From contig CM075993.1 in assembly GCA_038087875.1 (NCBI GenBank), forward strand, positions 7,380,001 to 7,444,000: 64,000 nucleotides of DNA. The letters are read 5' to 3'. The position numbers were made by a program, and so were the translations under genes. Below are positions 3,766 through 62,449 of the stretch, one piece after another; within the stretch, counting starts at the first letter, position 1, and every line of letters begins with the position of its first letter. The DNA comes from Malacoraja senta. Lineage: Eukaryota. The notes beneath the pieces were generated by a model. The model was not told the origin of the DNA and did no database searches. It saw only the letters and a program-made list of their open reading frames with translations.

Positions 3766-4247
3766 TGGAAACAAAGTGCTGGAAATACACATTTAATTTT
3801 TCTCATTTATTAACTTTTGGAATCTGGAAACTTTAGGAAACTTTGTCAGCGTCTGTCCAAAGAGGGACAGGGTTAACTAAAGGTCAGATTGAAAACCTCC
3901 GACCTGAACGCTAACACTATTTTTCTTTACACAAACGCTGTTCCGTACTTTCAGCATTTTCTGTTCTTGTTTTGGGTAGCCAGCATGTACAGTCTTCGAT
4001 TATCCTTCGAGGCAATAGTTGCTAACATTGTCAGCGATGCCCAGATTCCAAATGTTAATAAATGGGGAAAATTAAATCAAGGTAAATCATTCCATGAAGC
4101 AAAGTTTCATCAACTAGAATCAATGCAAGGGAAATAGCAATTACACTGGAGTGGTTACTCCAGTCAAAACAGCATGTTGCTGAGGCACTCCACAGCATTA
4201 GTTTTTACACCAATTCTGGGATTATCTTGCTTATAGTCTGATCATAT

Positions 4248-4545
4248 TTAGTTTATTTAGTTAAGAGATACAGCGCGGAAACAGGCCCCTCGGCCCATCG
4301 AGTCCGTGCCGACCAGTAATCCCCGCATATTCACACTATCCTACACACACTAGGAACAATTTACACTTATACCAAGCCAATTAACCTACAAACCTGCATG
4401 TCATTGAAGTGTGGGAGGTAACCGAAGATCTCAGAGAAAATCCACACAGGTCACGGGGAGAACGTACAAACTCCGTACAGACAGCACCCTTGGTCGGGAT
4501 CGAACCCGGGTCCCTGGCGCTGTGAGGCAGCAACTCTACCGTGCT
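4248..4545 (-). mobile_element. HE1-like tRNA-derived V-SINE
   Basis: Reverse complement of the 17321 copy: B box, central domain and CR1-type tail. Confidence 0.85.
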
Positions 4546-4784
4546 GAGACCTGGAATGTTTGTTGAACTTCCGTCAGTTGGGGCAGCCAGGAGCGATGCC
4601 AATCTGAATTGCAAACACTCAAACAGAGGCCACGAGGTGAACATTTTACACCATCCAAGATGTTGAAATGAGAAGCGAGCCTACAGTAATGGGGCACCCC
4701 TTCTATCGGCTAAATTACAGAGCCTGCAGTAACTAGCGCTGTTGAAAAGGATCTATCGTAATAAATTAGCACAGCTCTGTATAG

Positions 4785-5258
4785 AAACATAGAAAGTAGG
4801 TGCAGGAGTAGGCCATTTGGCCCTTCGAGCCAGCACAGCCATTCAATATGATCATGGCTGATCATCTAGAATCAGTGCCCTGTTCCTGCTTTTTCCCCAT
4901 ATCCCTTGATTCCATTAGCCCTCAGAGCTATATCTAACTCTCTCTTGAAAACATGGCAGAGAATACGTGGCAGAGAATTCCACAGATTCACAACTCTCTG
5001 GGTGAATAAGTTTTTCCTCATCTCAGTCCTTTTTTTTTTTTTTAATTATTTTTATTAGAAGTACGGTAAATTACAGTAATACAGTCCTGAATGGCCTACC
5101 CCTTGTTCTTAAACTGTGACCCCTGGTTCTGTACTCCCCCAACATGGGGAACATTTTTCCTGCATTTAGTCTGTCCAATCCCTTAAGAATGTTATACATC
5201 GCTACAAGATCCCCTCTCATCCTAAATTCATGTGAATAGAATCCCAGTTGATCCATTT
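4785..5258 (-). mobile_element. CR1-clade LINE 3' fragment
   Basis: ORF 5071..5256 (RGDL...GLDRL...RTRGHSL) plus tail. Confidence 0.85.
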
Positions 5259-5446
5259 ACACATTAATTAAAAAGCAGAGGTAGGCCAGAGGAAATGGTA
5301 GACGTTTAAACTGCAGGGAGCACGAACTCCAAGAGCCATTGGCCTCGTGAACACTGAACCCTGACAGGTCCACTCAAAGTTTGACAAAACAACACTCCCG
5401 CCGAGGAAAACAAGGACGGTACAAAACCTACAAGCTAGATTTGACC

Positions 5447-5872
5447 AATAAACAATAGGTGCAGGAGTAGGCCATTCGGCCCTTCGAGCCAGCACCGCCA
5501 TTCAATGTGATCATGGCTGATCATCCCCAATCAGTACCCCGTTCCTGCCTTCTCCCCAGATCCCCTGACTCCGATATATTTTTAAGAGCCCTATCTAGCT
5601 CTCTCTTGAAAGCATCCAGAGAACCTGCCTCCTGAGGCAGAGAATTCCACAGATTCACCACTCTCTGTGAGAAAAAGTGTTTCGTCGTCTCCGTTCTAAA
5701 TAGCTTATTCCTTATTCTTAAACTGTGGCCCCTGGTTCTGGACTCCTCCAACATCGGGAACTTGTTTCCTGCCTCTAGCGTGTCCAAACCCTTAACAATC
5801 TTATATGTTTCAATGAGATCCCCTCTCCTCCTGCTAAACTCCAGAGTGTACAAGCCCAGCTGCTCCATTCTC
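5447..5872 (-). mobile_element. CR1-clade LINE 3' fragment
   Basis: ORF 5521..5868 (RGDLIETYKI, FFSQRVVNLWNSLP) plus tail. Confidence 0.9.
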
Positions 5873-6351
5873 TCCAGAATTCTGACCAGAATCAGGAACG
5901 ATGAATAAAGGAGTTTCTGTCTGCTTGGGAAAGTAAAATTGTTTTACCTAAAAGACAAAATGGTGGATTAACTCTGTGGATCAGGCAGCATCTCTGGAGG
6001 ACATGGATAAGCAACATTTCAGTCAGTATCCTTGTTCAGACTCAGAGAAGTGTCTGTTTTCAATTAATTTTGGGGAGGGTAATGAAAGAAATTATCGTGT
6101 ACCAAGACACCTTTGATCATTTGGATCAACCATTTCCAGCACCACATCTACATCTGTCTCTGCTACTGTTCACCAGAAACAAGGACGACAGGAAACAAAC
6201 ACTAGTGGCAAATAATTTAAAGTAATTGCATTCAATAGGCCATAACAAGGGTCACTTGCAGAAAATCTGGATCGGTCCGTTTTGTATTTTGCAATAAACA
6301 TGTTCAAAACTCAGCACTAGAATTTACATGGATGGAATCTCCCAAAGATTT

Positions 6352-6645
6352 TGTTTCGTTTAGTTCGAGATACAGCGCGGAATCAGGACTTTCGGCCCAC
6401 CGGGACTATACCAACCAGCGATCCCCACACACTTACACTATCCTACACACACTAGGGACAATTTACAATCATACCAAGCCAATTAACCTGTACGTCTTTG
6501 GAGTGTGTCAAGGAACCGGAGATCCCGAAGAAAACCCACGCAGGTCACGGGGAGAACGTACAAACTCCATACCGTCAGTCAGGATCGAACCCGGGTCTCT
6601 GGTGCTGTAAGGCAGCAACTCTACCGCTGCAACACCGTGCCACCC
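6352..6645 (-). mobile_element. HE1-like V-SINE, near full length
   Basis: Matches the SINE body shared with 4248 and 17321. Confidence 0.85.
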
Positions 6646-6934
6646 CTTGGTTTCTTGTTTTGTTCCAATTATTCATTACAAAATACTCAAACATTCCAAT
6701 TTCAATTAAAATGGGTTAGATTAGATCAGCACTCTTTGTCGTTAATTAAATCGCTACATCAATTATTTAACCTTTAAAGATCACATTTTAGTTTCATATC
6801 CCATCTATTTTTTTCTTTGATTTACTCCACATCCAGTGAAGTGTTTAATATATCAAGTGATTAAGACAATACTCCACAGTCCAAACATCAGAAGAACCAT
6901 CCAAACTAAACTCAGATAAGGCTACGTAACAAAC

Positions 6935-7169
6935 CTTTTCCCAGATGTGTGTTGATGGACATATATCTTGCTGTTCCAGTTAAGCTCTTGTGTTCCCTGT
7001 AAGGGATGTGCTTTTTGGTATCAGAATCAATATACTCCTTGGCTAAACCAAAGTCTATTATATGGATTATGTGATCCTTTTTATTGCCTTGCCTTCCAAT
7101 TAGAAAGTTTTCTGGCTTGACGTCTCTGTAGATTAAGCTCTTTGAGTGCACAAACTCCATTCGGTTCAG
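6935..7169 (-). CDS. CSNK1G1: Casein kinase 1 gamma internal exon (235 nt), catalytic loop to SIN motif
   Basis: Overlaps ORF 6912..7208: [36 protein letters not shown]. Acceptor ctacag, donor gtttgt. [11 protein letters not shown] resembles gamma-1 (GRQGNKKEHVI) more than gamma-2 or gamma-3, from recalled human sequences. Confidence 0.96.
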
Positions 7170-7287
7170 CTGTAGAGAGAAATCAGACATGTTAATGACA
7201 AGGAACAATCATCCATCTCTTTTTTTTTTGCCCGTTCCAGCTCTCCTTTAGCCTCAACAGGAAGTTAGACACAAAATGCTGGAGTAA

Positions 7288-7841
7288 AGGGCCTGTCCCA
7301 CTTACGTGTCCTTGGCACGTGGCTTCGAAATTTTTGTAGCGAACGAAATCTTCGCGCGCCAACGGCCTGTCGCGGAACTGACGGCCAACAGGCCCAAGAC
7401 CCTGGCGCGACGCAACGTCTCACCTACAACAGCAGCAGAAGCAGGCAAACGATCGCCGAGTTCAGCCTGGGGCTCACGGCCGTTGTGGTCCGGATCCGTC
7501 CCCACTTCTACTCCCAGAGTGGGGCCAAGAAAATTGAAGATGGACACAAAATGCTGGAGTAACTCAGCGGGACCGGCAGCATCTCTGGAGAGAAGCAATG
7601 GGTGACGTTTCGGGTCAAGACCCTTCTTTCAGTCTCGACACGAAACGTCACCCATTCCTTCTCTCCAGAGATGCTGCTGGTCTCGCTGAGTTACTCCAGC
7701 ATTTTGTGTCCATCTTCAAATGACGTCACGCGCTTCAAACGGCTGTGCGGACGCATGATGACGTGCGTGACCTTCGCGCCTCAACGCGACCATGAGGTCG
7801 CGTAATTAGCGTGCCAAGGACACGTAAATGGGACAGGGGCT
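7288..7841. mobile_element. PIF/Harbinger-type MITE with TAA TSD, containing a nested PLE fold-back
   Basis: About 32-bp TIR AGGGCCTGTCCCACTTACGTGTCCTTGGCACG; TAA at 7285-7287 and 7842-7844. Removing it restores the host repeat gctggagTAActcagcggg. Confidence 0.88.
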
Positions 7842-8299
7842 TAACTCAGCGGGTCAGGCAGCATCACTGGAGAAAAGGAATAGGTGACATTTCAGGTCGA
7901 GACCCTTCTTCAGACTAAGATTCAGGGGCGAGGGAAACTAAAGGCATGAAAAGGTACAGAATAAGTCACCGATGACACCGATGAGTCAAGAAAGATAGAG
8001 CCCACAGTGGTCCATTGTTGGCTGTAGAAGAGGTGATAATGAGAGGATACACCCGACTCTGTCTGAAGAAGGGTCTCGACCCAAAACGTCAACTATTACT
8101 TTTCTCCAGAGCTGCTGCCTGATCCACTGAGTTACTCCAGCTTTTTGTGACTACCTTCGGTTTAAACCAGCATTTACGGTTCCTTCTTACACACGTCATC
8201 TCTCAGCCTCCAATGTTCCAGAGAAAACAATCTAAGTTTGTCCGAATCTGTTTTACTCGACAACACCCTCTAATCCAGGCAGCATTTCTGCATCCTTTA

Positions 8300-8925
8300 T
8301 AAACAATAGACAATAAGTGCAGGAGTAGGCCATTTGGCCCTTTCAGCCAGCACCGCCATTCAATGTGATCATGGCTGATCATCCACAATCAGTACACCGT
8401 TCCTGCCTTCTCCCCATATCCCTTGACTCCGCTATCTTTCAGAGCTCCATCTAACTCTCTCTGGAAAGCATCCAGAAAACCGGCTTCCACCGCCCTCTGA
8501 GGCAGAGAATTCCACAGACTCACAACTCTCTGTGTGAAAAAGTATTTCCTCATCACCGTTCTAAATGGCTTATCCCTAAATGACTTAAACTGTGGCCCCT
8601 GGTTCTGGAATCCCCCAACATCGGGAACATGTTTCCTGCCTCTAGCGCGTCTAAACCCTTAATAATCTTATACGTTTCAATAAGATCCCCTCTCATCCTT
8701 CTAAATTCCAGAGTGTACAAGCCCAGCCGCTCCATTCTATCAACATATGATACTCCCGCCATCCCGGGAATTAACTGTGTGAACCTACGCTGCACTCCCT
8801 CAATAGCAAGAATGTCCTTCCTCAAATTTGGAGACCAAAACTGCACTCCAGGTGTGGTCTCTCCAGGTGTGGTCTCCAGGTGTGGTCTCTCCAGGTGTGG
8901 AGTAACCAGAACTGCACACTATACT
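8300..8925 (-). mobile_element. CR1-clade LINE 3' fragment
   Basis: ORF 8553..8846 (QFWSPNLRKDI...VQRRFT...RGDLIETYKI) plus tail. Confidence 0.9.
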
Positions 8926-9011
8926 CCACAAGAGGCGTAGGGGACTTCTCCATGAGTTTAGTTTGAGTTTAGATTATTGTTGCGTATATAGAGGTACAGT
9001 GAAGAGCTTTT

Positions 9012-9233
9012 TGTTTAAGAAGGAACTGCAGATGCTGGAAAACCGAAGATACACAAAAATGCTGGAGAAACTCAGCGGGTGCAGCAGCATCTATGGAGCG
9101 AAGGAAATAGGCAACGTTTCAGGCCGAAACCCCTCTTCAGACTGGAGAAGGGTTTCGGCCCGAAACGTTGCCTATCTCCTTCGCTCCATAGATGCTGCTG
9201 CACCCGCTGAGTTTCTCCAGCATTTTTGTGTAC
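9012..9233. mobile_element. PLE fold-back mini-element, subfamily B
   Basis: Inverted arms meeting near 9141; degenerate direct repeat cagtgaa(g)agcttt on both flanks. Confidence 0.8.
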
Positions 9234-11132: not shown

Positions 11133-11368
11133 AAACACCTCCGCTCAGTCCGTCTTAACCTACCTGAACTCCCGGTGGCTCAGCACTTCAACTCCCCCTC
11201 CCATTCCCAATCTGCCCTTTCTGTCCTGGGCCTCCTCCATTGTCAGAGTGAGGCCCAGCGCAAATTGGAGGAACAGCAAGTCGACCCGAGACATCGCCTA
11301 TCTATTTCCTTCGCTCCATAGATGCTGCCTCACCCGCGGGAGTTTCTCCAGCATTTTTGTCTACCTTT
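11133..11368 (+). mobile_element. PLE GIY-YIG C-terminal fragment joined to terminal repeat
   Basis: Encodes EHLRSVR...PVAQHFNSPSHS...LGLLHCQSEAQRKLEEQ; homologous to 54620-55132 and 60880-61060. Confidence 0.8.
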
Positions 11369-19718: not shown

Positions 19719-19862
19719 GTAAGAAGGAACTGCAGATGCTGGTTTAAACCGAAGATAGACACTAAATCTGAAGAAGGGTCTCGACCCGAAACGTCACCCA
19801 TTTCTTCTCTCCAGTGATGCTGCCTGTCCCGCAGAGTTACTCCATCATTTTGCGTCCATCTT
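19719..19862. mobile_element. PLE fold-back mini-element with perfect 16-bp TSD and intact hammerhead-like core
   Basis: TSD tgattattgatcccat at 19703-19718 and 19863-19878. Core CTGAAGA-AGGGTCTCGACCC-GAAAC-GTC at 19768-19795. Confidence 0.85.
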
Positions 19863-25512: not shown

Positions 25513-25739
25513 GTGTTTAAGAAGGAACTGCAGATGCTGGAAAATCTAAGGTAGACAAAAAGTGCTGGAGAAACTCAGCGGGTGCAGCAGCATCTATGGA
25601 GCGAAGGAAATAGGAAATAGGAAATAGGCAACGTTTCGAGCCGAAACCCTTGGGTTTCGGCCCGAAACGTTGCCTGTTTCCTTCGCTCCATAGATGCTGC
25701 TGCACCCGCTGAGTTTCTCCAGCACTTTTGTCTACCTTT
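25513..25739. mobile_element. PLE fold-back mini-element (subfamily B) with 13-bp TSD
   Basis: gatatgattcccc at 25500-25512 and 25740-25752; near-perfect inverted arms. Confidence 0.87.
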
Positions 25740-26974
25740 GATATGATTCCCCTCTCCCTCACCAACAGGATTTTATTTTTGTTTATTAATACATGTGTTG
25801 TTTTGTCAGCAGCTCTAACTTGATTCAAGTTGTTTGTATCTTCCGTTCCCGGCTTCTCATCAAATAAAATAGACCGCTAACACATGATATTCAGCCGGGT
25901 GTACGTTCTATTCTTGAATTTATGACGTAGGCCCTGCCTATCCGTAGGATACCGATGCCCGACTTGTGGACACACCGCTCATAGTTTGTGGGCATTTGGG
26001 AGACCTTGTCGGCATCTTCTCCTGGATGGAAACGGGGCATTTCCGAGAGCCTTCTCGTCCCACCACCTTCAATCCGCAACGGTGGGGGTCTGGGTGGGGG
26101 GGGCCAAGCAGCAGACTTTCAATGATTAGATTAGATTAGATTTTATTTGTTGTCATTTGAACCCAGAGGTTCAAACGCAATTTGGTTTCTGCAGTCATAC
26201 AAACAAGAAGAAGAACCAAGACACAACACAATTTACACAAACATCCATCACAGCGAATCTCCTCCTCACTGTGATGGAAGGCAAAGTCTTATCTCTCCGT
26301 TCTGTGTAGGAAGGAACTGCAGATGCTGGTTTGAACCGACGATAAGACACAAAAAGCTGCAGTAACTCAGCGGGACAGGCAGCACCTCTGGAGAGAAGGA
26401 ACGGGTGACGTTTCGGGTCGAGACCCTTCTTCAGACGTCAAAATTATGTTCTTACTTTTACCAGTTTTGACAAAATGATATTCCCGCCCTACACTCTGCA
26501 GTATTCCCTTTCCAATTGGATCGCCAGGTAACTTAGTAAAATGAAAAATAATTCGGTGCGAGGTGTGACAGAAACTGCCACTAACTCGCACGCAGACTCA
26601 CTTGGCCACTCACTGAGTCAGAGAGGCGGGCTGGCAGCTGCTCTTCCCACGCCCGCTCCCTCTCCCATCACCACCACCTCTGTGACCATCTCCCACACAC
26701 ACTTTTTAATTAATTTCCGACTTACGAACAGTTCTCAGGAATGGTGGGGCTACATGCTGCCACCATGGCGGAGTTGCTGCTTACAGTGCCAGAGACCCTG
26801 GTTCGATCCTGACTACGGGATGCTGGTTTAAACTGAAGATCGGCAGAAAAAGATGGAGTAACTCTGCGTGACAGGCAGCATCTCCGGAGAGAAGGAATGG
26901 GTGACGTTTCACCTTCACTTCCTCTCACCTCATCTACTGCATCTGGTGTTCCCGATGTGGCCTCCTGTACATCA

Positions 26975-27152
26975 GATGGAGCAACTCAGCAGGACAGGCA
27001 GCATCTCCGGAGAGAAGGAATGGGTGACGTTTCGGGTCGAGACCCTTCTTCAGACTGAAGAAGGGTCTCGACCCGAAACGTCACCCATTCCTTCTCTCCA
27101 GAGATGCTGCCTGTCCCGCTGAGTTACTCCAACTTTTTGTGTCTATCTTCGG
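26975..27152. mobile_element. PLE fold-back with back-to-back hammerhead-like cores
   Basis: Palindrome centre cttcag-a-ctgaag at 27054; CTGAAGA..GAAAC-GTC is readable on both strands. Confidence 0.85.
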
Positions 27153-27204
27153 AGACACTGGAGAACAGGTTAAGAACAGAGTTCAGTAACTAAATAGGAA
27201 TGGT

Positions 27205-27497
27205 GGCGGCATGGTGACGCTGCAGTACAGTTGCTGCCTTACAGCAGCAGAGACCCGGGTTCCATCCTGGCGCTGTCTGTACGGAGTTTGTACACTTCCC
27301 CTGTTACCACGGCGTTTTCCCCGGGTTTCCTCCCACATTCTAAAGATGTACAGGTTTGTAAGTTCAATGGCTTTTGGTAAAGATTGTAAATTGTCCCTAG
27401 TGTGTAGGGTGGTGCTAGTGCACGGGGATGGCTGGTCGGCGCGGACTTGGTGGGCCGAAGGGCCTGTTTCCACGCTGCATCTCTAAACTAAACTAAA
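27205..27497 (+). mobile_element. HE1-like V-SINE
   Basis: Degenerate A and B boxes, central domain, (ctaaa)n tail. Confidence 0.85.
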
Positions 27498-27660
27498 GGG
27501 CTTTTGAAATTGAATTCTGTCCTTGATTTGTGTATTGTGGTGTTTTTATATTTAATTTATTTCGATTATGTGTTTTGTATTTATGTGATTCTATGCCTTG
27601 TAAGGTGTCCTTGGGTTTTAGAAAGGCGCCAGTAAATAAAATGAATTATTATTATTATTA

Positions 27661-27852
27661 TTTCACGACCTCTGCCGAGTTTGCCCTTGACTCATACTCG
27701 CAGCATGGTCGTCACGAGGTTGTAGCAGGTCGTGATGCTAGTCGTAGGTACTCGTGGCATCAAGTAGGTCGGGGCGTTTTTTCTAGCCTGATGAAAAATG
27801 TCCTTGAGTAAAAATGGTCGTGAATTAGGTCGTGAAAGTGGGACAGATCCCT
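27661..27852. mobile_element. Truncated Harbinger-type MITE, same family as 40542-40755
   Basis: Interior closely matches the 40542 copy; only the right TIR is retained. Confidence 0.8.
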
Positions 27853-30248: not shown

Positions 30249-30779
30249 AAAATCTTGGTGTTTTGCTCAAGATTCCAGCATCTGCAGTTTGTTGTGTCCC
30301 CATATCTAATGCTTTCCTGGCCTGACTCTCATCCTTTCTCCACTATAGATCACCTCATTCAATCTGGTCTACCCTGTCATATGCAAGCAGGCAGTCACTC
30401 ATTACTCCTTGGCTCCTTCTATTAACTGAGGAGTTGACAGACGGCTGTAGAGGGCAAGTAAGGGTATTCTTAAAGCAGAGATTGATAGGATTTTGATTAG
30501 TAAGAGCGTCAAAGGTTACGGGGAGACGGCAGGAAAATGGACAAATTGCTGGAGTAACTCCAGGGGGACAGATAGCATCTCTGGATAGAAGGAATGCGTG
30601 ACGTTTTGGTTCGAGACCCTTCTTCAGACTGTCTGGAGAGAAGGAATGGATGACACTTTGGGTTGAGACCCTTCTTCAGACTAGGACAGGAGAATGACAT
30701 AGGACAGTCTGAAGAAGGGTCTCGACCCGGCCCGTCGCCCATTCCTTCTCTCCAGAGATGCTGCCTCACCCGCTGATTT

Positions 30780-30985
30780 AGTCAAGTCAAGTCACAATTA
30801 TTTCTATAGCACATTTAAAAAAACAACTCTCGTTGGCCAAAGTGCTTTACATTGGTGGAGGTACTAACGTTATACAACAGTGGTTCATAGATTAAGTACA
30901 TACATAAATACATACATATAGCCCTCGCTCAGAGGATGTCAAGAAAAGCTTGAGAGTAAAGATGAGTTTTAAGTCTCGACTTAAG
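30780..30985 (-). mobile_element. L2 3' tail inserted in a PLE repeat
   Basis: Reverse complement of the L2 tail with (ttgac)n end. Same family at about 32843-33084, 48716-48887 and 62753-63016. Confidence 0.8.
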
Positions 30986-32254
30986 TTACTCCAGCATTTT
31001 GTGTCTACCTTCTTCAGACTTAGGCAAGAGAATGAGGCTGAGAAGGAAACTATGGATCAGCCATGATTGAATGGCGGAGCAGACCTGATGGGTCGAATGG
31101 CCTAATCCTATATTTTACGAACTTATGATTCAAGTTTAAGAACCCCTCCCAAAAACTCCTCTGCTTTCCACATGCTGCAATGCTTTAAAAAAATCCTCCC
31201 TGACCAAGGCCTTTCAATAACGCGTTCGTCAGTGTGGAATCTTAGGACACCGGGATATTTAGAAACGTAGAAAGCACCAGTGAGATAACACAAAGCGACT
31301 ATTCTGTGGAATCAGGGCACGGCATCATACCTCGGAACCATCGGTGGCAGGAGATAAGCCTTGATTTGAGAGGAAGTACAGAAAAATCTACCAGACAACT
31401 TCCATAAAGCTGGATTAGCAGGAGTAATGTCCTGCAGCAAAGGCTGGGAGATTATTTAACATATAGCAGTTGATAACAAAATGCCATTTGCGAGTTCAGA
31501 AGCTGCACTTCATACAGTACTCCCTTTATTGGTCAAATATTAAAGTATTCCGAGTCCCTTCTATTTTAATGTGCCATTTGTAATAACCAGCAATCCATCC
31601 AATTCCGGGATCACTTACAAATTCTATTTACATCTTCTCATGCAATTCATGTGCTTCAAGAATACATGTTGAATTCATACTGAATTCAAGGAGTCCTTAC
31701 ATGTCGTTGTCACTGAGAAGACCTTTCAGAATGGACAGACATGGGGCATAGATCAGTGTACAGATTATATTTCCAGAAGGAAAACAAAGAGTACTGTTCA
31801 GTTTGGAAAGGTCAGCATAGAAATGATTAACACTGTGTATTTGACTTTTTTTTGCTCCTGACTTCATGGAGAAGTTCATTTATTCACCATTACTCAGTGG
31901 AAAATGTGGAGCTCTTAATGACCCCCATTGGCCAATTAAGTTGCACAGACAGGCACAAAGTGCTGGAGTAACTCGGCGGGTCAGGCAACATCTCTGGAGG
32001 AAAAGGAATAGGTGACGTTTCGGGTCGGGACGCTTCTTCAGACTTTTAAGTTGCACAGATGCATCGTTCCATTCCAGGAATATTATGACCAGATTTCCAA
32101 CTGGACACAAATTTAGCAGCAAGACAACTTTTTACTCTGCATTTTTAGGCAGCAGCATAGGATACTGAGCAATTTAAACTGCCAAACTTAATTGTGTAAG
32201 CACGATTAATTTGATTATAGGGATGCACAAGTATAACACAATTTGTTATTATTT

Positions 32255-33164
32255 CCACCATCAATGGTGGAAAGGGTCAAGAACTTCAAATTCCCGTGCA
32301 TATTTCCGAAGATCTCTCCTGGTCCCAGAACACTGATGCAATCATAAAGAAAGCATATCAGCGCCTCTACTTCCTGAGAAGATTACAGAGAGTCGGTTTG
32401 TCAAACTTCTACAGGTGCACAGTAGAGAGCATGTTGACCGGTTGCATCGTGGCTTGGTTCGGCAACCTGAGCGTCCAGGAGCAGAAAAGGCTGCAAAAAG
32501 TTGTGACCACTGCCCAGTCCATCATCGGCTCTGACCTCCCTACCATCAAGGAGATCTATCGCAGTCGCTGCCTCAAAAAGGCTGGCAGCATCATCAAGGA
32601 CCCACACCATCCTGGCCACACACTCATCTCCCCGCTGCCTTCAGGTAGAAGGTACAGGAGCCTGAAATCTGCAACATCCAAGTTCAGGAATAGCTACTTC
32701 CCCACAGCCATCAGGCTATTAAACACAACTTCAAACAAACTCTGAACTATAACAGCCTATTGCACTTTATCTGTTTATTTATGTGTGTATATATATATAT
32801 TCTATGGTATATGGACACACTGATCTAATCTGTATTTATGACATCCCTCTTCCCATCAGAACTGCCCCCCTCCAGCAACTCTTTTAAGTCTAGACTTAAA
32901 ACTTATTTCTACTCTCAAGCCTTTCTTGAGGTCCTCTGAGGGAACGCTGTATGTATTTATGTTTGTATTGTTGATCTATGTACCACTGTTTGTAGCAAGT
33001 TAGTACCTGCACTATTGTAAAGCACTTTGGACAACGAGAGTTGTTTTTAAATGTGCTATAGAAATAAAATTGACTTGACTTGACAATATTCTGTTGTGCT
33101 GCAGCAAAGCAAGAATTTCATTGTTCTATCTGGGACACATGACAATAAACTCTCTTGACTTGAC
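32255..33164 (+). mobile_element. Rex1/Babar-clade LINE 3' end with nested L2 tail
   Basis: ORF 32296..32745 (LSW...KKAYQRLYFLRRL...FYRCTVES...DPHHPGH...LPSGRRYRS...SYFPTAIRLLN); tail gacaataaactctcttgacttgac. Confidence 0.9.
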
Positions 33165-33457: not shown

Positions 33458-34131
33458 GCATGCAGGTACAGCAGGCAGTGAAGAAAGCTAATGGCATGTT
33501 GGACTTCATTGTGAGAGGATGAGCGTTTAGGAACAAGGAGGCCGGCCCTACTGCAGTAGTACAGGGCCCTGGTGAGACCGCACCTGGAGTATTGTGTGCA
33601 ATTTTGGTCTGCTAATTTGAGGAAGGACATTATCGCTATTGGGGGAGTGCAGCGTAGGTTCACCGGGTTAATTCCCGGGATGGCGGGACTGTCGTATGAT
33701 GAAAGAATGGGTCGATTGGCCTTGTATTCGCTGGAATTTAGAAGGATGAGAGGGATTCTTATAGAAACATATAAAATTCTTCAAGCATTGGACAGGTTCA
33801 ATGCAGGAAAAATGTTCCCGATGTTGCAGGATCCCAGAGTTACTCCAGCATTTTGTGTCGACCGTCACAGTTTAAGAATAAGGGGTAGGACAGTTAGGAC
33901 TGAGATGAGGAGACATTTTTTCACCCAGAGAGTTGCGAATCTATGGAATTCTCTGCCACAGAAGGCAGTGGAGGCCAATTCACTGGAGGTTTTAAAGTTA
34001 TATTTAGCTCTTAGGGTTAACGGAATCAAGGGATATGGGGGAAAAAGCAGGAACGGGGTATTGATTTTAGATGATCAGCCATGGCTCGAAGGGCCAAATG
34101 GCCTACGCCTGCACCTATTTTTCTATGTTTC
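33458..34131 (+). mobile_element. CR1-clade LINE 3' fragment
   Basis: ORF 33572..34159. Confidence 0.9.
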
Positions 34132-34319
34132 AATGATGTTGCCAGATTTTAAGTTATGAGGAGTGACTGCTAAGGCAGGTTCCGTTTTCCCTGGAGTGGA
34201 TGAAGTTAAAAAGGAACGTTATTGAGGCATATAAGGTTGAGGGGTATAGATAGGATAGGATAGGATAGACTGCAGGCATGTCTTCCACTTCTCAGAGGCG
34301 CATAACATTAGAGGACATT

Positions 34320-36090: not shown

Positions 36091-37219
36091 CTATTGTTTA
36101 GGCATGAGACCAACATTTGTAAGTCCATCTTGGGAATGATTCCCCTAAATTCTAATACTCCACCACTGTAGTCTTGCCTATAATTCTGGTCTCCTGCACA
36201 TCCCAAATTTTGATAAGCAAATGAATGACTGCCAAAATTAGACAGGACAAAAATGCAAAGACAAATTGCAGATTCATGAGTTCATAAGTGATAGGAGCAG
36301 AATTAGGCCATTTGGCCCATCAAGGCTACTCCGTCATTCAATCATGGCTGATCAATCTCTCCCTCTTAACTCCATTCTCCTGCCTTCTCCCCATAACCCT
36401 TGACACCTGTACTAATCAAGAATCTATCTATCTCTGCCTTAAAATTATCCATTGACTTGGGGGGGCTGAGGGTGCGGGTGAAGGTGGGGGTGGGGGGTGG
36501 GCTGAGACGGTGCGGGTGAAGGTGGGGGGGTTGAGAGTGCAAAAGATGCATCTGTGATAGGGTGCAGGACAAGAGAGAGAGAGAATGACATAGGTGTATG
36601 TGGTTGTGCTTGCTGAGGGAGGGTGGTTTAGTCATCACAGTTGGTGAGGCTGGAGGTGACATGGACAGACAATACGGAACCAAGAGGAGAAAAACGTTGC
36701 AAGAACTGTGAGATACAAAAATGTTGCAGTTGCTTAAAATTTGAAATAAAAGAGAACAGTGTAAATATTCAGCAGGGTCATGCAGCAATTGTAAAGAGTG
36801 AAACCGTTTATGTTACAGCCAGTTAATCTTGTTTCTGAACTGGCTGGAAAGGTATAAACTGGAAAGGCTGGATATTTGAAATTGTTCCATTTAATGTTGA
36901 GTCATGAGAGCTTAATGTGCCTCATTGAAAGACGAGGTCACAAGAGACCGCAGAGGCTGGTGGGTGTCTGGAACAAGCTGCCAGAGGATGTAGTTGAGGC
37001 TGGGATGATACCATCGTTTAAGAAACAGTTGGACAGGTACATGGATAGGACAGGTTTGGAGGGTTATGGACCAAGCGCATACAAGTGGGACTAGGGTAGC
37101 TGGGACATTGTTGGCCGGTGTGGGCAAGTTGGGCCGAAGGGCCTGTTTCCACACTGTATTGCTCGATGACTTTATGCTGGAATCTTGAGCAAAAAACAAA
37201 GTGCTGGAGGTATGCTGCT

Positions 37220-37437
37220 CCTGTCCCACTTAGGAAACCTGAACGGAAACCTCTGGAGACTTTGCGCCCCACCCAAGGTTTCCGTGCGGTTCCCGGAGGT
37301 TTTTGTCAGTCTCTCTACCTGCTTCCACTACCTGCAACCTCCGGCAACCACCAGCAACCTCCGGGAACCGCACGGAAACCTTGGGTGGGGCGCAAAGTCT
37401 CCAGAGGTTTCCGTTCAGGTTTCCTAAGTGGGACAGG
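37220..37437. mobile_element. Harbinger-type MITE with perfect 82-bp inverted arms
   Basis: 37220-37301 is the exact reverse complement of 37356-37437; terminus CCTGTCCCAC. No clean TSD. Confidence 0.85.
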
Positions 37438-37817
37438 GGCGGGCGGGTCAGGTAGCATCTGTGGAGGGAATAGACAGACATTGATTTAGACAGCAGTAGG
37501 ACCCAAACCTGAAACATTCCCTCACACAGATGCTGCCTGACCTGCTGAGTGCCTTGTTTGTTGCAAGGTGAAGTACTGTTCCTCAAGCTCTCATTGCTCT
37601 CTTTTGGAACAACTAGAAATGTCAGGAAATACGTAGCATTAAGGCCACATCTGTGGCAAGAGAATCAGAGCTAATGTTTCAGGTCAAAGACCCTTCGACG
37701 GAACCGGGAAGGAGACAAAAGAAGCTTGTTAAAAACTGCAGGGCGGGAGGATTGGACAAATCCTGGATGAACATGGGGATAAGTTATAATAACAATGAGT
37801 GAATGGAAGTACGTTTA

Positions 37818-38112: not shown

Positions 38113-38371
38113 GTAATTAGAGAGTGAGAACATAACAGAAGGAACAAGGAACTGCAGATGCTGGAAATTTGAGCAAAATACAAAGTGCTGGAGGATCTCA
38201 GTAGGCCAGGCAGCATCTGTGGAGGGAATTGATAAGCAAAGTTTCAGGTCGGGACCCTTCTTCAGACAGATGATTGCCACAGTTGCAAAATGCAGATATT
38301 GCTTCAGTACAAGTTCTTGTTCAGTTGCCTACTGCTTTAATTCCCCATCCTACTTGCACTTTGCAGACTAA

Positions 38372-40755: not shown

Positions 40756-40835
40756 TAAATTGGTCATATATGATTTTCCTTTTGCAAACCACACTGACTT
40801 TGGACAATTATTACGAGCCTTTGTGGCCAAGCTAA

Positions 40836-41369
40836 AGGGCCTGTCCCACGAGCATTCGACTGCATGCAGCTAGCGCGACCTAACGTGGTCGCGCTAGCCG
40901 TGCGGCCTCGCGGGGCCAGTCCCACTTCGATCCCCGGAGCCGCATGGAGTTGTGTGGAGCTGGTCCCGACATCGCGCGAGGCTCCAAAAAACTGAGTGTT
41001 AAAAAATTCCGCGCGGCAACGGCCTGCCGGCCCGCTGCCGCATGGAGGCCGCACGCACCGCCTCGACACCGTACGTAGCATCTTGACGCCGAACGCAGTG
41101 TCTTGACGCCGTACGCAGCCTCTTGACGGCGTACGCCTAGCACGTGGCGTTGCACGGTGACGTAATCGCCCGACGCCGTGCGACGTCCAAATTCAGTCGG
41201 CCCGCCTCCTGCCCAGCTGATTGGTGAGTATGATGTCGGGACCAGCCCCGCACAACTCCAGACGGCTCCGCGGTTGGAAGTGGGACCGGCTCCGCGAGGC
41301 CGTATGCCTCAAGCCACCACGTTTGGTCGCGCTAGACGCATGCAGTCGCATGCTGGTGGGACAGGCCCT
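40836..41369. mobile_element. Harbinger-type MITE with TAA TSD, CpG-rich, long imperfect inverted arms
   Basis: TAA-AGGGCCTGTCCCAC ... GTGGGACAGGCCCT-TAA; arms extend over roughly 130 bp. Confidence 0.88.
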
Positions 41370-41758
41370 TAAGACTCTAATATTTAAAAGACAGATTGGA
41401 CTTCAAGGGTACAGGGTAGTGACTAAAACAGGACAACTCTTGTGTACAGACTCAGTAGGGTCTACTGTCTTACACTCATTAGCATGATGGTGCCAAATGT
41501 ATATAGTAGGGTTGTCACTGAACTGAATGCGACAAAAGAGAATTTGAGTTTAGTTTATTGTCACGTGTACCAAGGTACAGGGAAAAGTTTTTGTTGTATG
41601 CCAACTGGTCAGCGGAAAGACAATACATTATTACAATCGAGCCATCCAGTGTAATTTCACTGTAGACACAAAATGCTGCAGTACCTCAAAATGCCTTGCT
41701 GGAGCATCTTTAATAATAGCTTTCAACATTTTCCTGTGACAGATGTTAAACTAATTGC

Positions 41759-50081: not shown

Positions 50082-51167
50082 CTAAAACAAAAACAAATGA
50101 AGCAGACATGATTGCGGGTCACCATAGGTTCTCCCTGTACACTGACCACTTGGTGCAGTGCTGCCTACACAACAGAATCACATGGCCTCAATTTGTAACG
50201 ATACACATGAAATGGAATTAGGGTTTGATTTAAAAAAAAACAATTTTTTACCCACAGTGAAAAAATCTGAAAGGATCGTTGGGGAAAAGCATCTACTTAA
50301 TTTAATAAAACTGTTGACCCACTTCTCGGCATCCACATACAATGGTGTCTGTCTTGTGCCTGGTGGTGGAAAGATTGGTGGAAACAGGGCCGCGACGTGA
50401 ACGCTCTTTCCTTGACCCCTCTGCAGTTGCTGACATCTCATCTACCCACTTGGTCACAGGGAGAATGAGCAAGCCCCACACAGACATCGCCCCAGGTCGG
50501 GAGTGAATGCATGTCTCTGGCGCCGTGATGCAGCAGGTGGAGCAGCTGCGCCACCGTGCCACTATCTTGTTCTTCCAATTTGTGTTTGGCCTCTCTGTAG
50601 CAATGGAGGGGGCCGAGGGGAGGCGGGTCAGTGTGGGAGTAGGATGGAGACGTGTGATAACATTCAACAGCAAGTACCAATGGTCGTTGTGGACAAAACA
50701 TAGATGTTCGGCAAAAATCCTGTCTACGCTCGGTTTTATCACTGCAGGAGAGTCGTGTATGCAGCAGACCAGATCGGAGGAGGTGCAGGTGAACTGTCTA
50801 ATCTGGAAGGATCATTTATGTCCCTCTGTGATAGATACGGAGGTAAGAAAGGGGTTTGGCATGCTTGCCTTCATCAGTCAGGATACGGAGTATAAAATGT
50901 ATAGGACAGAACTGCAGATGCTGGTTTAAATCGAAGGTGGACATAAAATGCTGGAGTAACTCAGCAGGACAGGCAGCATCTCTGGAGAGAAGGAATGGGT
51001 GACGTTTCAGATCGAGACCCTTTCTGTCTTCGGTCTGAAGAAGGGTCTCGACCCGAAACGTCACCCATTCCTTCTCCCCAGAGATGCTGCCTGCCCCGCT
51101 GAGTTACTCCAACATTTTGTGTCTATCTACGGTTTAAACCAGCATCTGCAGTTCCTTCCTACACACC

Positions 51168-53984: not shown

Positions 53985-54394
53985 ATAAAAACATAGAAAA
54001 TAGGTTCAGGAGTAGGCCATTCGGCCCTTCGAGCCTGCACCGCCATTCAATATGATCATGGCTGATCATCCAACTCAGTATCCTGTACCTGCCTTCTCTC
54101 CATACCCCCTGATCCCTTTAGCCACAAGGGCCACATCTAACTCCCTCTTAAATATAGCCAATGAACTGGCCTCAACTACTTTCTGTGGCAGAGAATTCCA
54201 CAGATTCACCACTCTCTGTGTGAAAAATGTTTTTCTCATCTCGGTCCTAAAAGACTTCCCCCTTATCCTTAAACTGTGTCCCCTTGTCCTGGACTTCCCC
54301 AACATCGGGAACAATCTTCTTGCATCTAGCCTGTCCAACCCCTTAAGAATTTTGTAAGTTTCTTTTAGATCCCCCCTCAATCTTCTAAATTCTA
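53985..54394 (-). mobile_element. CR1-clade LINE 3' fragment, young
   Basis: Uninterrupted ORF 54075..54455 C-terminus plus intact tail. Confidence 0.92.
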
Positions 54395-54616
54395 GGCATT
54401 GGTTTTGTCTTCTTGCACTATTAGGGTGTATGTGTGCGCGTGCGCGTGTATACATTTACAGACTACTATGCTTACATATTTTGTTGTGCTACTGCAAGTA
54501 AGAATTTCATTGTTCAATTTGGGACATATGACAATAAAACACTTAATATCCCTTATCTTTTGTAAAAACTAAATAAAATTGTTGTATCCTCAGTCAACAG
54601 GTAAATCCTTCGCACA

Positions 54617-55132
54617 GAAGATAGACACAAAAAGCTGGAGTAACTCAGCGGAACAGGCAGCATCTCTGGATAGAAGGAATGGGTGACGTTTCAGGTCAAG
54701 ACCCTTCTTCAGACTGAGTCAGGGGAGAGCGAGACACAGATAAGGAGGGGTAAGGTGTGAAAACAAGGTTAAAAAAAGATGAAAATCAAGGAAAATATAG
54801 AATAGATCATCGTTAGCTGGGAGAAAGTACCAACGAAGCAAACTGGGATAAAATGCAATCGGGGATAGTCAGACTGGTCGGAGAACTGGGATGGGGGAGG
54901 GGTGGAAAGCAAGGGTTAATTGAAGTTAGAGAAGTCAATGTTCATACCGCTGGGGTGTAAGCTGCCCAAGCAAAATATGAGGTGCTGTTCCTCCAATTTG
55001 CGCTGGGCCTCACTCTGACAATGGAGGAGGCCCAGGACAGAAAGGTCAGTGTGGGAATAGGAGGGGGAGTTGAAGTGTTTAGCAACCGGGAGATCAGGTA
55101 GGTTTAGGCGGACAGAGCGGAGGTGTTCAGCG
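54617..55132 (-). mobile_element. PLE 3' end: GIY-YIG C-terminus, UTR and terminal repeat
   Basis: Reverse strand encodes AEHLRSVRLNLPDLPVAKHFNS...RKLEEQHLIF.LGSLHPSGMNIDFSNF, then a pyrimidine-rich UTR, then the repeat that forms the fold-back arms. Confidence 0.87.
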
Positions 55133-56790: not shown

Positions 56791-56936
56791 GGTCTTGTGG
56801 ACTGAAGGCAACATGGCACTAACTGACTACTGAACACCTGCCGGTGCTTTGGTCCTTGGCCACTCAATCCAATGACACGATTCAACAACACATTTAATCA
56901 TCTACTGTATGGCAATTGTTACACCTCGTTGAGAGG

Positions 56937-57072
56937 TCCTCCGCTTCTTTCTGGAACAAAGATCAAGCCATCCAACCTCCATCAACATGCTCACCCATCT
57001 GGCAGAACTTGTTCTTACCCTGGACAATTTCACAGTTGATTCTTTCCACTTTCTATTAATAAAAGGTGAGGC
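56937..57072 (+). pseudogene. PLE reverse transcriptase fragment
   Basis: Translates LRFFLEQR...LAELVLTLDNFTVDSFHFLLIKG, resembling the PLE RT region before the G-x-AMG motif. Confidence 0.6.
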
Positions 57073-58103
57073 GACTGATTCACCACCCTCTGACTAAAGC
57101 ATAGAGCATCCCTGGAGAACCAAGATCGGGGACGTTTCGCGTCTGGACCCTTCGTCAGATTAATTGCAGGGGTTCGGGGGGGAGGAAAGAAAGCTAGAAG
57201 AGTGCAAATTCATAAAGAGATTGCCTCCAAATTCATAAAGATATTGCCTCCTAGATTTATCCCTGAATGTATTAAGGTGGGAATCACACACATTAAGGAG
57301 AAGATTAATGATAGCGATTGGAACATTTCACGATGCATAAGTATTTAATAATTTGGACATTATTTCTTTGGACAAAGAGTACTGGGAGATTTTAACTGAG
57401 ATGCATAAAATTGTGAGGGGCTTTGGTAGTAAATAAGAAGGATGGATCTTCATAGCAAAATGGGTCAAAAATGATAAATCAGATTCATAGTGAATAACCG
57501 AAGGATTGGAGCAGAGACAACTATTGGTCAGTAGTTGCTTGGAACTTAGTTTGACGAGGCGGTAAAAGATGAAACATATACCACCTTTAAAAGGCACTTG
57601 GATATGTACTTGGACAACTGAATCCTGCAGGGTTATGGGCCAAATGGCAGATCAGGGAATTTTGCAGTGTGGATCTTTCTTGACCACAGTGGCCATAATA
57701 GGCCCAAATGCACCACAGAATTAATAGAGACCAGATATTCCGTCTAAATGGTCTATGCTGCATTAGAAACAGCCTCTTCTCATTCTGTAAAGGCGACTGC
57801 GGAGGCCTCAATTGGCCCGACTATGGATGGACATGGGGATGGGGACTGGACTTTGTGCCTTCCCTCATAATGGGAACCATTGTGGGGGGATGTTTTCTTA
57901 TGTTTAAATTTCTTTATTATTGTTATGTTGTATTCTTTTTTATGTGCTGCAATGGCAAACCGCATTTCACTTCACCAATTGGTGTATGTGACTAATAAAG
58001 AACCTTTGAACCTTTGCAAGATTTATCTCATTCTGCAATAATTATAAGTAGCTGAGACTCAAAATCTATGTACTGCTCCTACACTACAATCAATTATATC
58101 AGT

Positions 58104-58685
58104 CAGGAATCAGTCAGGAATCCTGGCGACTGCGTAGGACTGGCAGCTTTCTACAGACCTGGTGAAACAGCTGAAGTTCCCACAGCACATTGCCACAACC
58201 ACCCTGAGGCCAGATATCCTCCTGGTCTCAGAGGCGACCAGCAACATTGTCTTGTTGGAACTGACAGTGCCGTGGGAGGACCGTCTGGAGGAGGCCCACG
58301 AGAGGAAGATGACCAAGTATGAAGAGCTGGTCATAGACTGCCGTAAGCAGGGCTGGAAGGCAAGGTGTATGCCCATCGAGGTTGGCTGCAGAGGTTTTGC
58401 AGGGCAATTGCTCTACAAAGCCTTGAGTGCACTGGGTATCAACGGAGTGGCGAGGAGAAGAGCCATCAAGAACAACACAGAGGCAGCGGAGAGGGCCTCG
58501 AGATGGGTCTGGATCAGGAGAGAAGGTCCATGGGGAGGAGCAAATGCCACCTGAACACAAGTCGTGGTCTGATCAACCACGGCTGGGTCTCCTGGGCGAG
58601 GGTGTCTGATGTTGAAAGACCCAAAACACGTAATGACCCCCAGGTTACATCACTGATGATGTGTTCAGGAGCATCACGAGATCAA
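58104..58685 (+). mobile_element. RLE-type (R2-group, HERO-like) non-LTR retrotransposon 3' end
   Basis: ORF 58162..58554: RPDI...ELTVPWE...AHERK..KY..L...GW...IEVGCRGF, a PD-(D/E)xK restriction-like endonuclease. Followed by a stop codon and 3' UTR; candidate TSD atatcagt. Confidence 0.82.
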
Positions 58686-60032: not shown

Positions 60033-60634
60033 TATAGCTCAATTATTCTATGACTCTAATCATAAGTTCATAAGGTTCATTTATTGTCACATTCACCAAT
60101 TGGTGAAGTGAAATTCACTGGCAAGGTCAGTCATACAATTTAAAAGAGCAACAGACTCAGAAAACACATTTTAACATAAACATCCATCACAGTGACTCCT
60201 ACACATTCCTCACTGTGATGGAAGGCGAAAATAAAGTTCCAAGTCCTTCCCTTGTTGTTCTTCCTTGGTCGGGGGCCTCGGGCCCCCCGTTGACGGGACG
60301 GGACAGTGATACACTGTCAGTGATCCAGTCCCGACCCGAAACATCACCCATTCTTTTTCTCCACAGGTGCTGCCTGACCTGCTGAGTTACTCCAGCACTT
60401 TGTGTCTATCTTTGAACCAAGGGTTGATTGGCCTACTGTGATGAATGCTCAGCATCCATTCAAGGCTTTGTGGTTGTTAAAAAACACATGCCCTCGGCTG
60501 CCCTGGCTACAAGCCTCAACAACCCAGCCGCAAACAGAAACACTGGTCATTGTTCACAGTTTGTTAATTCTTGCTCTGGTTTCTTTGTCAACATCAACAG
60601 CAATTAAATTAAATCGTTGGCTATAAAAGTTACA

Positions 60635-61265
60635 TGATAGACACAAAATGCTGGAGTAACTCAGCTGGACAGGCAGCATCTCTGGAGAGAAGGAATGGGT
60701 GACGTTTCGGGTCGAGACCCTTCTTCAGACTGATGTCAGGGGAGTGGGCGGGACAGAGATAGAACATAGTCGGAGACAGTAAGACTAGTGGGAGAACTGG
60801 GAAGGGGGAGGGGATGGAGAGAGAGGGAAAGCAAGGACTATTTGATGTTAGAGAAGTCAATGTTCATACCGCTGGGGTGTAAGCTACTCAAGCAAAATAT
60901 GAGGTGCTGTTCCTCCAATTTGCACTGGGCCTAACTCTGACAATGGAGGAGGCCCAGGGCAGAAAGGTTAGATTGGGAATGGGAGGGGGAGTTAAAGTCC
61001 TGAGCAACCGGGAGATCAGGTAGGTTAAGGCGGACTGAGCGGAGGTGTTCAGCAAAACGATCGTCTCGCCCATGTACAGGAGTTTGCGCCTGGAACAGCA
61101 GATACAGTAGATGAGGTTGGAGGAGGTACAAGTGAACCTCTGCCTCACAGAACAGACTGTCGGGGTCCTTGGATGGAGTCGAGGGGGGAGGTAAAGGGAC
61201 AGTTGTTGCATCCCCTGCAGTTGCAGGGGAAAGTACCTGGGGAGGGGGTGGTTTGGGTGGGAAGG
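60635..61265 (-). mobile_element. Penelope-like (Neptune-type) 3' end: Cys-rich linker, GIY-YIG endonuclease, UTR and terminal repeat
   Basis: Frameshifted GTFPCNCRGCNNCPF...RQRFTCTSSNLIYCICCSR..LLYMGET...RFAEHLRSVR. Further PLE debris continues to about 62745. Confidence 0.87.
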
Positions 61266-62449
61266 GACGAGTTGAGATGGAATTGTTCCTTTCTGTGAGC
61301 TACCCATGCGGAATATCAGGTCCTGTTCTTGCAGTTTGCACGTGGCCTCACTCTGCCCATGGAGGAGTCCGAGGTCGGACAGGTCGGTATGGGAGTGGGA
61401 AGGGAAATTCAAGTGGCCGGCAACTGAGAACTCGAGCTGGCAATCTGGCCTGAAGAAATCTTTAGTCTGAAGATGGGTCCTAACCGTAAAAGTCACGCAT
61501 CCTTTTTCACCAGAGATGATGCCCGATCCACTGAGTTACTCCAGCATGTTGTGTCTATCTCCAGATGGCGACGGTTTGGCGAAGCAGCCACCTAATCCAT
61601 GCTTGGTGTCACCAACATGAAGGAGGTCACATTGAGAGACTGAATGTAATAGACATTGGAGGAGTGAGGTGTAAATCTCTTTTCTCGAAAGAAGAGCTGT
61701 TTAGGTCCCTGAATGGAGGCGAGGGAGATGTATGGACTGGTGTTGTTGGGGAAAGTGCCCGGGGAGGGGGGAAGTGGGAGAGGAAATAAGGGAGAAGAAC
61801 GATCCAGGGAGTCCTGGAGAGAGTAGTTGCTGCGGAAAGCAGAAGTGACAGAGAGGGGAAAGTGCGAGGCTGCGGTATAGTATGGACACTGATAGAAATG
61901 GGGGGGGGGGGGGGGGGGAGAGAGGTGTGTTGGTTGTTGAAGCTATGTGAAAGATAAGGTCCAGGGGTTGCATACCCTGTTCTGGCAGGGTAGATGGGAG
62001 AGATTGAGAGCAGAACTGCGAGGAGTGGAGGAGACGTGGGTCAGGGCTCCGCTCCCAACTGCTGTAGGGGGGGGGGGGGGGGGGGGCGGTGCATCACGTT
62101 TCCAGAATCAGCAACATCTCGGGCGTCTCGGAGTGGAAAGCCTCATGGAAGATGCAGCGGATACAGAGAAACTGCGAGCGAGGGTTGGCGTCCTTGCAAG
62201 AGGATACCAGAGCACCGAGAGGATAGGGCAAGTTTGGAGGAATGCGGGCCACATCCAGGCAGGTAGGACGAGTGTAGATGGGGCATGTTGGTCGGCGTGG
62301 GCAGGTTTTGCTGATGATAGACACAAAGTGCTGGAGTAACTCAGCGGGTCCGGCAGCATCTCTGGAGAAAAAGGGTGCGTGATGTTTCGGATCGGCCCCC
62401 TCTTCGGACGGAAGGGGCCCGTTTCCATGCTGTATGACTCGATGACTAA

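Follow-up and report, generated by a model that had tools for sequence, protein, structure and literature searches.

A head-to-head pair of minimal hammerhead motifs in a skate casein kinase I gamma intron, most likely an inverted insertion of Penelope-like element termini

The window, i.e. the whole 64,000-nucleotide stretch of DNA that was analysed, has its best protein matches among skates and carries exons of a Casein kinase I gamma (CK1-gamma) gene on its minus strand. Two of these exons flank a fold-back centred on base 27054, which thus lies inside a CK1-gamma intron of ~32 kb, where the first-pass annotation had placed it. The same annotation had recognized hammerhead cores back to back on both strands at this point, and these were confirmed from the sequence: CUGAAGA-A-GGGU-CUCG-ACCC-GAAA-CG-UC is readable from 27055 on the plus strand and from 27053 on the minus strand, with base 27054 as the mirror point. 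The arms of the fold-back (26975-27152) are 95% complementary across 80 nt. The features of the locus and the host exons are as follows:

26820..26910, minus strand: third pseudo-LTR (pLTR) copy, beginning at the GAAA box and including part of the tail
26905..26973, plus strand: fragment of a GIY-YIG endonuclease core (FTxTSSxLIYCIxCxxCxLLYI), found by tblastn with skate proteins
26975..27055, minus strand: left arm, pLTR unit positions 1-81, 3′ end cut short
27024..27055, minus strand: host-sense copy of the minimal type I hammerhead; helix I formed by 27055-27054 with 27025-27024, CUGAAGA from 27053, all elements intact
After C at 27026, minus strand: cleavage site of the minus core as predicted from the motif
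27053..27084, plus strand: mirror-image minimal hammerhead; CUGAAGA from 27055, stem II 27063-27074, GAAA 27075-27078, GUC 27080-27082
27054..27152, plus strand: right arm, spanning pLTR unit positions 2-100 and reaching just a few bases into the tail
~17856-17710 (ends approximate), minus strand: CK1-gamma exon, downstream border of the intron
50081-50010, minus strand: CK1-gamma exon, upstream border of the intron
53599-53558, minus strand: further CK1-gamma exon
7169-6936, minus strand: further CK1-gamma exon

Both cores contain the CUGANGA and GAAA boxes, an extra base between positions 9 and 10.1 together with a G10.1-C11.1 pair, and A-C-G-U followed by C, which provides a palindromic 15.2-16.2 without a real helix III as well as a UH cleavage triplet. 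Helix I is as short as had been suspected (2 bp), and under the strict descriptor both of its pairs are present in the minus core only, as in the plus core the centre base creates an A-A mismatch at the closing position. Stem II is likewise pairable, but not in the form first described, with 5 bp and a 2-nt loop; on steric grounds it is better read as 4 bp closed by a tetraloop (CUCG, or UUCG in subfamily B).

The locus extends beyond the two arms. The endonuclease piece (23 codons) sits between the third pLTR copy and the left arm, and shares ~69% identity over 22-23 amino acids with the skate proteins P0002 and P0003 (tblastn; e-values: 2e-4 and 3e-5). The third copy and the left arm have two private variants in common which are absent from the plus arm, so that the locus is composite. 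A search of its surroundings revealed no target duplication. SINE-like repeats, which we take to resemble the elasmobranch HE1 V-SINE, flank the locus at 26745-26820 and 27200-27495.

An iterated profile recovered 70 copies of the ~95-nt pLTR unit in the window (36 on the plus and 34 on the minus strand), covering 8.5% of its length, with 54 scoring above 40 bits. The 3′ ends of these 54 strong copies fall at unit positions 88-101 (20/54), 123-138 (21/54) or elsewhere (13/54), with modes at ~95-96 and ~133-134, and the 38-nt stretch between the two ends is an optional tail of a Penelope-like element (PLE). Target duplications scoring at least 8 were identified for 7/18 head-to-head pairs and 4/24 solo copies. 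A head-to-tail tandem with an added inverted arm, in which all three GAAA boxes are mutated, is present at 30541-30786, and tandem-like joints of the unit are also seen in other public runs. The family is also abundant in the runs of related organisms, where 342,120 contigs of one run were aligned to an 841-nt stretch, and thus offers the products of PLE integration in very large natural numbers.

A relaxed motif pattern has 21 matches in the window and none in 100 shuffles, while the strict descriptor identifies 17 cores with both boxes and the UH site, compared to 0.07 on average across 100 random sequences. As the copies are paralogs, both counts show a single repeat family rather than independent origins. 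Ten of the 17 two-box cores are fully intact, in that stem II also keeps its four pairs and helix I its two, with the palindromic pair preserved; the minus core at 27053 is one of them and the plus core at 27055 is not. The claim that dozens of cores lie in the CK1-gamma introns therefore holds for the repeat copies, of which there are 70, but not for the cores themselves. Similarly, the motif had been listed as recurring at 8063, 19768, 30708, 51035 and 60700: the cores at 51035 and 60728 are intact and that at 19768 retains both boxes with a single helix I pair, but the GAAA box is broken at 8063 (GAAA to AAAA) and 30709 (GAAA to GGCC). The previously proposed subfamily B does exist, but its sole intact copy is that at 9140, its fold-backs at 25550/25652 and 29824/29885 begin past the CUGA box, and its G-U changes do not constitute evidence of covariation.

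The source of the unit can be traced through two copies that are still linked to coding sequence:

61290→60636, minus strand: 3′ end of a 5′-truncated parent PLE, comprising a CX4CXXC linker, an endonuclease of GIY-YIG type with a frameshift and one stop, the 3′ UTR, the intact hammerhead at 60728 and a unit ending at position 95
55134→54620, minus strand: second body-linked copy, with endonuclease C-terminus, UTR and intact hammerhead at 54712

At both loci the ~95-nt unit has the orientation of the endonuclease ORF, which it follows after a pyrimidine-rich UTR, and at a third locus (11134-11283) the endonuclease abuts the unit. A longer helix I was sought in the body-linked copies and was not found. 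The parent ORF contains, in order, C-X4-C-XX-C (near 61230), IYCIxCxxxxLLYxGET and two His residues. A Pfam comparison of 12 ORF pieces from the window gave no PLE match, nor did the 71-amino acid endonuclease piece of the window match any Pfam family, and the link to PLEs was therefore made through homologs. Among the close homologs, P0003 scores above the Pfam GIY-YIG cut-off and three score below it. The full-length homologs combine DKG, a reverse transcriptase (RT), a CX2-5CXXC linker and, at the C-terminus, a GIY-YIG domain, with the RT in the same ORF as the endonuclease, whereas the window holds weak unlinked RT scraps only; the 64 kb yielded neither a full-length element nor a unit-linked RT ORF. 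A C-terminal GIY-YIG domain with this linker marks Neptune or Nematis PLEs in the descriptions given by Craig et al. (2021, PMC8557442), and Neptune has been reported in vertebrates according to a preprint (bioRxiv 10.64898/2026.07.22.740005). The parent is thus, as judged by its motifs and by this reported distribution, a probable Neptune-type endonuclease-positive PLE.

Further PLE remnants can be observed in the window. Weak RT fragments occur at 56891-57082 (plus strand) and 51359-51236 (minus strand), the former adjoining a divergent hammerhead copy at 57158 with CUGACGA. An older endonuclease remnant at 61293-61900 (minus strand) is interrupted by a pLTR copy (61465-61559, plus strand) and abutted by the younger element, an arrangement of nested PLE insertions. 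The skate gene models P0001-P0004 all end in this PLE endonuclease, including one named neuromedin-U receptor 1 and one named receptor-transporting protein 3-like, and these ends are likely annotation artefacts or cases of exonisation.

The endonuclease also allowed the motif to be compared with distant PLEs. Sixteen metagenome loci, which look invertebrate-derived, encode the same endonuclease, and in seven of these a two-box motif lies ~115-215 nt beyond the match, on the endonuclease strand. In two more, the motif is on the opposite strand, upstream of the endonuclease (L005:633 and L012:1181, both minus strand); in L012, 9 nt separate it from the match, which recalls the skate layout. The exact motif pattern had no matches in the metagenome contigs, and the endonuclease alignment search gave no confirmed locus in the genome contig and viral contig collections. 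When nine window copies, chosen to span the subfamilies, were aligned with eight invertebrate copies, 4/8 pairs were changed on both sides, in helix I and helix II, with 91.9% of the cells paired, compared to 17-47% in slid controls, and 0/500 shuffles reaching the score; this signal is essentially one contrast between two lineages, in which related rows are counted many times. Covariation, proposed earlier as a check across the subfamilies, is seen only against distant PLE families: among 32 window copies 0/8 pairs were changed on both sides and the score fell below the shuffled mean, while within the invertebrate set alone 1/9 pairs changed and the score was not above shuffles. A covariance model built from the eight invertebrate copies only nevertheless includes both skate cores among its 20 hits (minus core: e-value 1.3e-4 over the whole model; plus core: e-value 1.7e-3 over model positions 7-34 only; both e-values being rough). 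The earlier reading had also been made to depend on a conservation of the core in excess of the flanking repeat. At non-CpG positions, 15/413 differences were counted in the core and 335/3191 in the rest of the unit (per-column p 0.025, a modest value), such that the core does exceed the remainder of the unit, although its level of conservation is equalled by three blocks further downstream (3.8-5.9%).

The motif furthermore fits the consensus published for the minimal hammerheads of PLEs, namely CUGANGAH, a G...C stem II, GAAA, a palindromic N-N, UH and a short helix I (Cervera and De la Pena 2014, PMC4209133, Fig. S3). As in the window, the published motifs have an additional base separating 9 and 10.1 and occur both as widespread solos and in dual form on opposite strands, and a 2-bp helix I is also found in the motifs of Drosophila virilis, Culex and Oikopleura. 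No cartilaginous fish is among the 56 motifs consulted in the same figure, and its teleost motifs have a stem II of 7 bp, compared to 4 bp in the skate window. The density of ten intact cores in 64 kb, if typical, which is an extrapolation, would be far above the 4,000-9,000 per genome that the article gives for coelacanth and Xenopus. The link to the endonuclease, the fit to this consensus and the distant covariation together uphold the original identification, and on its sequence the motif at 27054 can be considered a real minimal PLE hammerhead of a known class.

Its surroundings also have counterparts in known elements. The Neptune PLEs, in the portions of PMC8557442 that describe their structure, share with the skate PLE the C-terminal GIY-YIG domain with CCHH, the CX2-5CXXC linker, a pLTR with a hammerhead, an adjacent inverted 5′-truncated copy and a one-sided tail of 30-40 bp; Nematis PLEs have a linker zinc finger as well, and the clade assignment of the skate element rests on motifs. 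In the Penelope elements of Adineta vaga, as presented by Arkhipova et al. (2013, PMC3846280), head-to-head pLTRs overlap in a palindrome, with an optional one-sided tail, 8-10 bp target duplications and solo pLTRs, but the inverted pLTRs are low-copy, whereas in the skate window the body between the arms is usually absent. PAc, a Poseidon element of Anolis carolinensis (Frangieh et al. 2024, PMC11167929), resembles the skate unit in having two RT start sites that bound the tail and a hammerhead near the 5′ part of the pLTR. It belongs, however, to a different clade, without the linker zinc finger, and its activity has been measured. The non-LTR retrozymes of animals also derive type I hammerheads from PLE pLTRs, with one chondrichthyan genome included and a mean consensus of 363 bp in the preprint (bioRxiv 10.64898/2026.07.22.740005). 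These are head-to-tail tandems with two complete hammerheads, whereas the locus at 27054 is head-to-head with ~95 nt per arm, and the tandem at 30541-30681 has both GAAA boxes broken. The literature covered, in which subscription journals are thinly represented, contained no description of the skate family, and the supplements of the preprint, which sampled one chondrichthyan, may bear on it. The two-strand layout to which the first-pass annotation drew attention is thus real, but as a by-product of insertion it is already in print in the relevant sections of PMC4209133, PMC8557442 and PMC3846280. The locus at 27054 most likely represents a known hammerhead class in a known inverted-insertion layout, and is most likely silent there. 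It carries little weight itself, as an ordinary dead-end insertion, and the interest lies in the density of the family and in its sharp 5′ boundary.

Folding predictions are consistent with a silent locus. The fold-back is predicted to form a hairpin of −162.9 kcal/mol (z −26.6), from which freeing a core and forming stem II would cost ~50 kcal/mol on either strand. As the arms are joined head to head, the antisense arm would be made first in read-through RNA from either side, which, from this geometry, would leave the core no kinetic window. The suggestion that the antisense arm sequesters the core in fold-backs is therefore borne out at the level of prediction. The accompanying suggestion that solo sense copies might cleave fared less well. 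Solo arms have an alternative fold, in which the core pairs with a downstream pyrimidine run, predicted to be 4–9 kcal/mol lower, and a dimer partner would be needed; the double-hammerhead fold is predicted at −6.1 kcal/mol, compared to −16.6 or −36.4 kcal/mol for two monomers, in energy models that omit Mg, tertiary contacts and protein. In the experiments reported in PMC4209133, monomers of minimal hammerheads were inactive and dimers cleaved weakly, dimer cleavage being further discussed in the relevant part of a review (PMC6765202) that cites Lünse et al. on PLE hammerhead dimers. One of nine Xenopus dimers cleaved according to the preprint text (bioRxiv 10.64898/2026.07.22.740005), and the ribozyme of the anole element is stated to need its protein (PMC11167929).

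Two readings of the cores themselves must be weighed against this evidence. The motif may be no ribozyme remnant at all, but conserved repeat sequence that fits the boxes by chance: a search of the whole 64-kb window against Rfam returned no family at gathering level and no hammerhead family was matched at E <= 10 within 26400–27700, the 32 window copies lack double-sided changes, and CpG decay would be expected to produce C-to-U and G-to-A changes. The only matches below threshold in that interval were microRNA-like hairpin models, which reflect the palindrome. A chance fit is nevertheless extremely improbable, given the same position of the motif behind the endonuclease and the compensatory changes in distant families, the exact fit to the published consensus, and a position 17 that is not G in 53/54 copies. 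Alternatively, the intronic cores, be it that at 27054 or solos such as 26434, could cut the CK1-gamma pre-mRNA and alter its expression. All ten intact cores are located in introns, eight of them on the host-sense strand, and the host-sense cores 27053 and 26434 are separated by 620 nt. However, intact solo cores are not depleted from the host-sense strand (4/5; p 0.375, with small n), the strands of the copies are even overall, and both the lower alternative fold with the pyrimidine run and the inactive monomers and weak dimers of the published work argue against it. We consider such an effect on the host gene very improbable, and cleavage of the pre-mRNA at 27054 in particular is unlikely on the predicted energies.

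The 5′ end of the unit is sharply defined. Among the 54 strong copies, 36 reach unit positions 1-5, a count that is bounded by the reference and includes approximately six copies continuing into the UTR, and 15 start at positions 6-16. Cleavage-defined 5′ ends were considered and rejected, since 0/70 copies start at positions 30-33, the cleavage site; PAc, similarly, inserts from uncleaved RNA in the account of PMC11167929. When four runs, each consisting of contigs, were aligned to 60480-61320 with an 85% cut-off, the summed contig depth dropped 50- to 160-fold just upstream of the hammerhead, part of which may reflect UTR divergence at this cut-off, and in run X1 the peak depth over the endonuclease was ~8-fold lower. 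In each of the two largest runs, more than 1,000 contigs diverge from the reference at 60730, and as many at 60731, and continue into sequence unrelated to it (agreement 0.31, among the 24 rows listed of ~3,000). In one contig, 42 nt are skipped from a point adjoining the cleavage site, which was read as a deletion variant. Host-exon transduction was rejected as the cause of the edge at the solo copies 15834 and 31948, where the start of the unit and the target duplications are separated by 0-2 nt. The edge matches the initiator consensus YYANWYY, on both strands at the centre, and is also splice-acceptor-like, with YAG behind a pyrimidine tract. The pile-up of 5′ ends could thus be due either to a transcription start or to a splice acceptor; the intron of D. 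virilis Penelope ends at the position of the hammerhead 5′ edge according to PMC4209133, and its promoter and intron are treated in PMC2377424. Most simply, the edge may mark the start of the template RNA, with priming from the tail producing a short run-off cDNA that is either integrated by itself or linked to another cDNA at TCAG-N-CTGA. In four subfamilies (~51068-51090 and 2458-2480 on the plus strand; 9090-9108 and 38215-38235 on the minus strand), a pyrimidine tract and YAG, again resembling a splice acceptor, also occur right before an ATG, ~20 nt downstream of the cleavage site, and the frame that follows stops after 16-17 codons in two and is open through the tail in two.

For the origin of the inverted arrangement, two further explanations can be compared with joining during insertion. 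The palindrome could be a self-propagating non-autonomous element, MITE- or SINE-like, that is copied whole, in keeping with the presence of 18 head-to-head pairs in 64 kb, several of which have target duplications (8-16 bp), and with at least three pairs that share an identical centre (9141, 27054 and 49191). Among the 18 pairs, however, the centres vary widely, with arm starts from position 1 to 63 and several subfamilies represented; the arms of a pair share an identity of 0.80-1.00, mostly no higher than that to other copies; and some solo copies are flanked by target duplications of their own. A hairpin RNA would, moreover, be a poor template for a one-sided tail, and the tail is clearly confined to one arm in 10/18 pairs. 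Copying of the palindrome as a whole is thus very improbable. The centre could otherwise serve as a bidirectional start site, producing two short RNAs with 5′ hammerheads that dimerise in trans and cleave, as might be expected from the initiator-like match on both strands and from the pile-up of copy 5′ ends at the centre. The mismatch at the closing pair of helix I in the plus core, the unfavorable predicted energy of the double hammerhead relative to the monomers, and the absence of the initiator-like word from the invertebrate copies make this reading very improbable, although for the PLEs of rotifers a pLTR promoter acting in both directions has been raised in PMC3846280.

Based on the sequence and on the folding models, it is instead very probable that both motifs are hammerhead-bearing pLTR ends of a Neptune-type PLE, likely joined head to head during insertion, and that at 27054 they are, as predicted, locked in one long hairpin and likely never cleave. 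In such a scheme, the PLE protein would nick the target and reverse-transcribe from the tail sites towards the 5′ end of the RNA. Two cDNAs, or a single cDNA folding back, would be joined via the short TCAG-N-CTGA palindrome at the hammerhead 5′ edge, and at the locus of 27054 further template switches or later rearrangement would have brought in the endonuclease scrap and the third copy. In an intact element the activity of the ribozyme would depend on dimer formation via ACGU, which is self-complementary, and probably on help from the protein, while in the fold-back the read-through RNA of either strand would have the antisense arm before the core.

The 5′ boundary, the two 3′ ends and the lack of starts at the cleavage site bear on the role of the PLE hammerhead and on the origin of inverted ends. 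As a tentative and rather doubtful extension, the RNA of skate and ray PLEs may begin at the hammerhead 5′ edge, such that priming from the tail would yield a strong-stop cDNA of 95-135 nt which integrates alone or as a fold-back, seeding their genomes with ~10^5 intact minimal hammerheads, well above the published counts for coelacanth and Xenopus, and the 30 nt before the cleavage site would provide a terminal redundancy for retrovirus-like strand transfer. If true, this would give the PLE ribozyme a concrete job.

Inverted SINEs in mammals form double-stranded RNA, and the dense intronic inverted repeats observed here would be expected to do the same. Additional repeats in the window include ORF pieces resembling LINE 3′ ends (1592-2002, 5521-5943, 8553-8918, 33560-34159, 54075-54455, 32221-32745 and 58138-58554). 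Long inverted repeats unrelated to the hammerhead unit are furthermore located at 37217-37440 and 40832-41373 (85 nt at 99% and 142 nt at 85%), and possibly represent MITEs.
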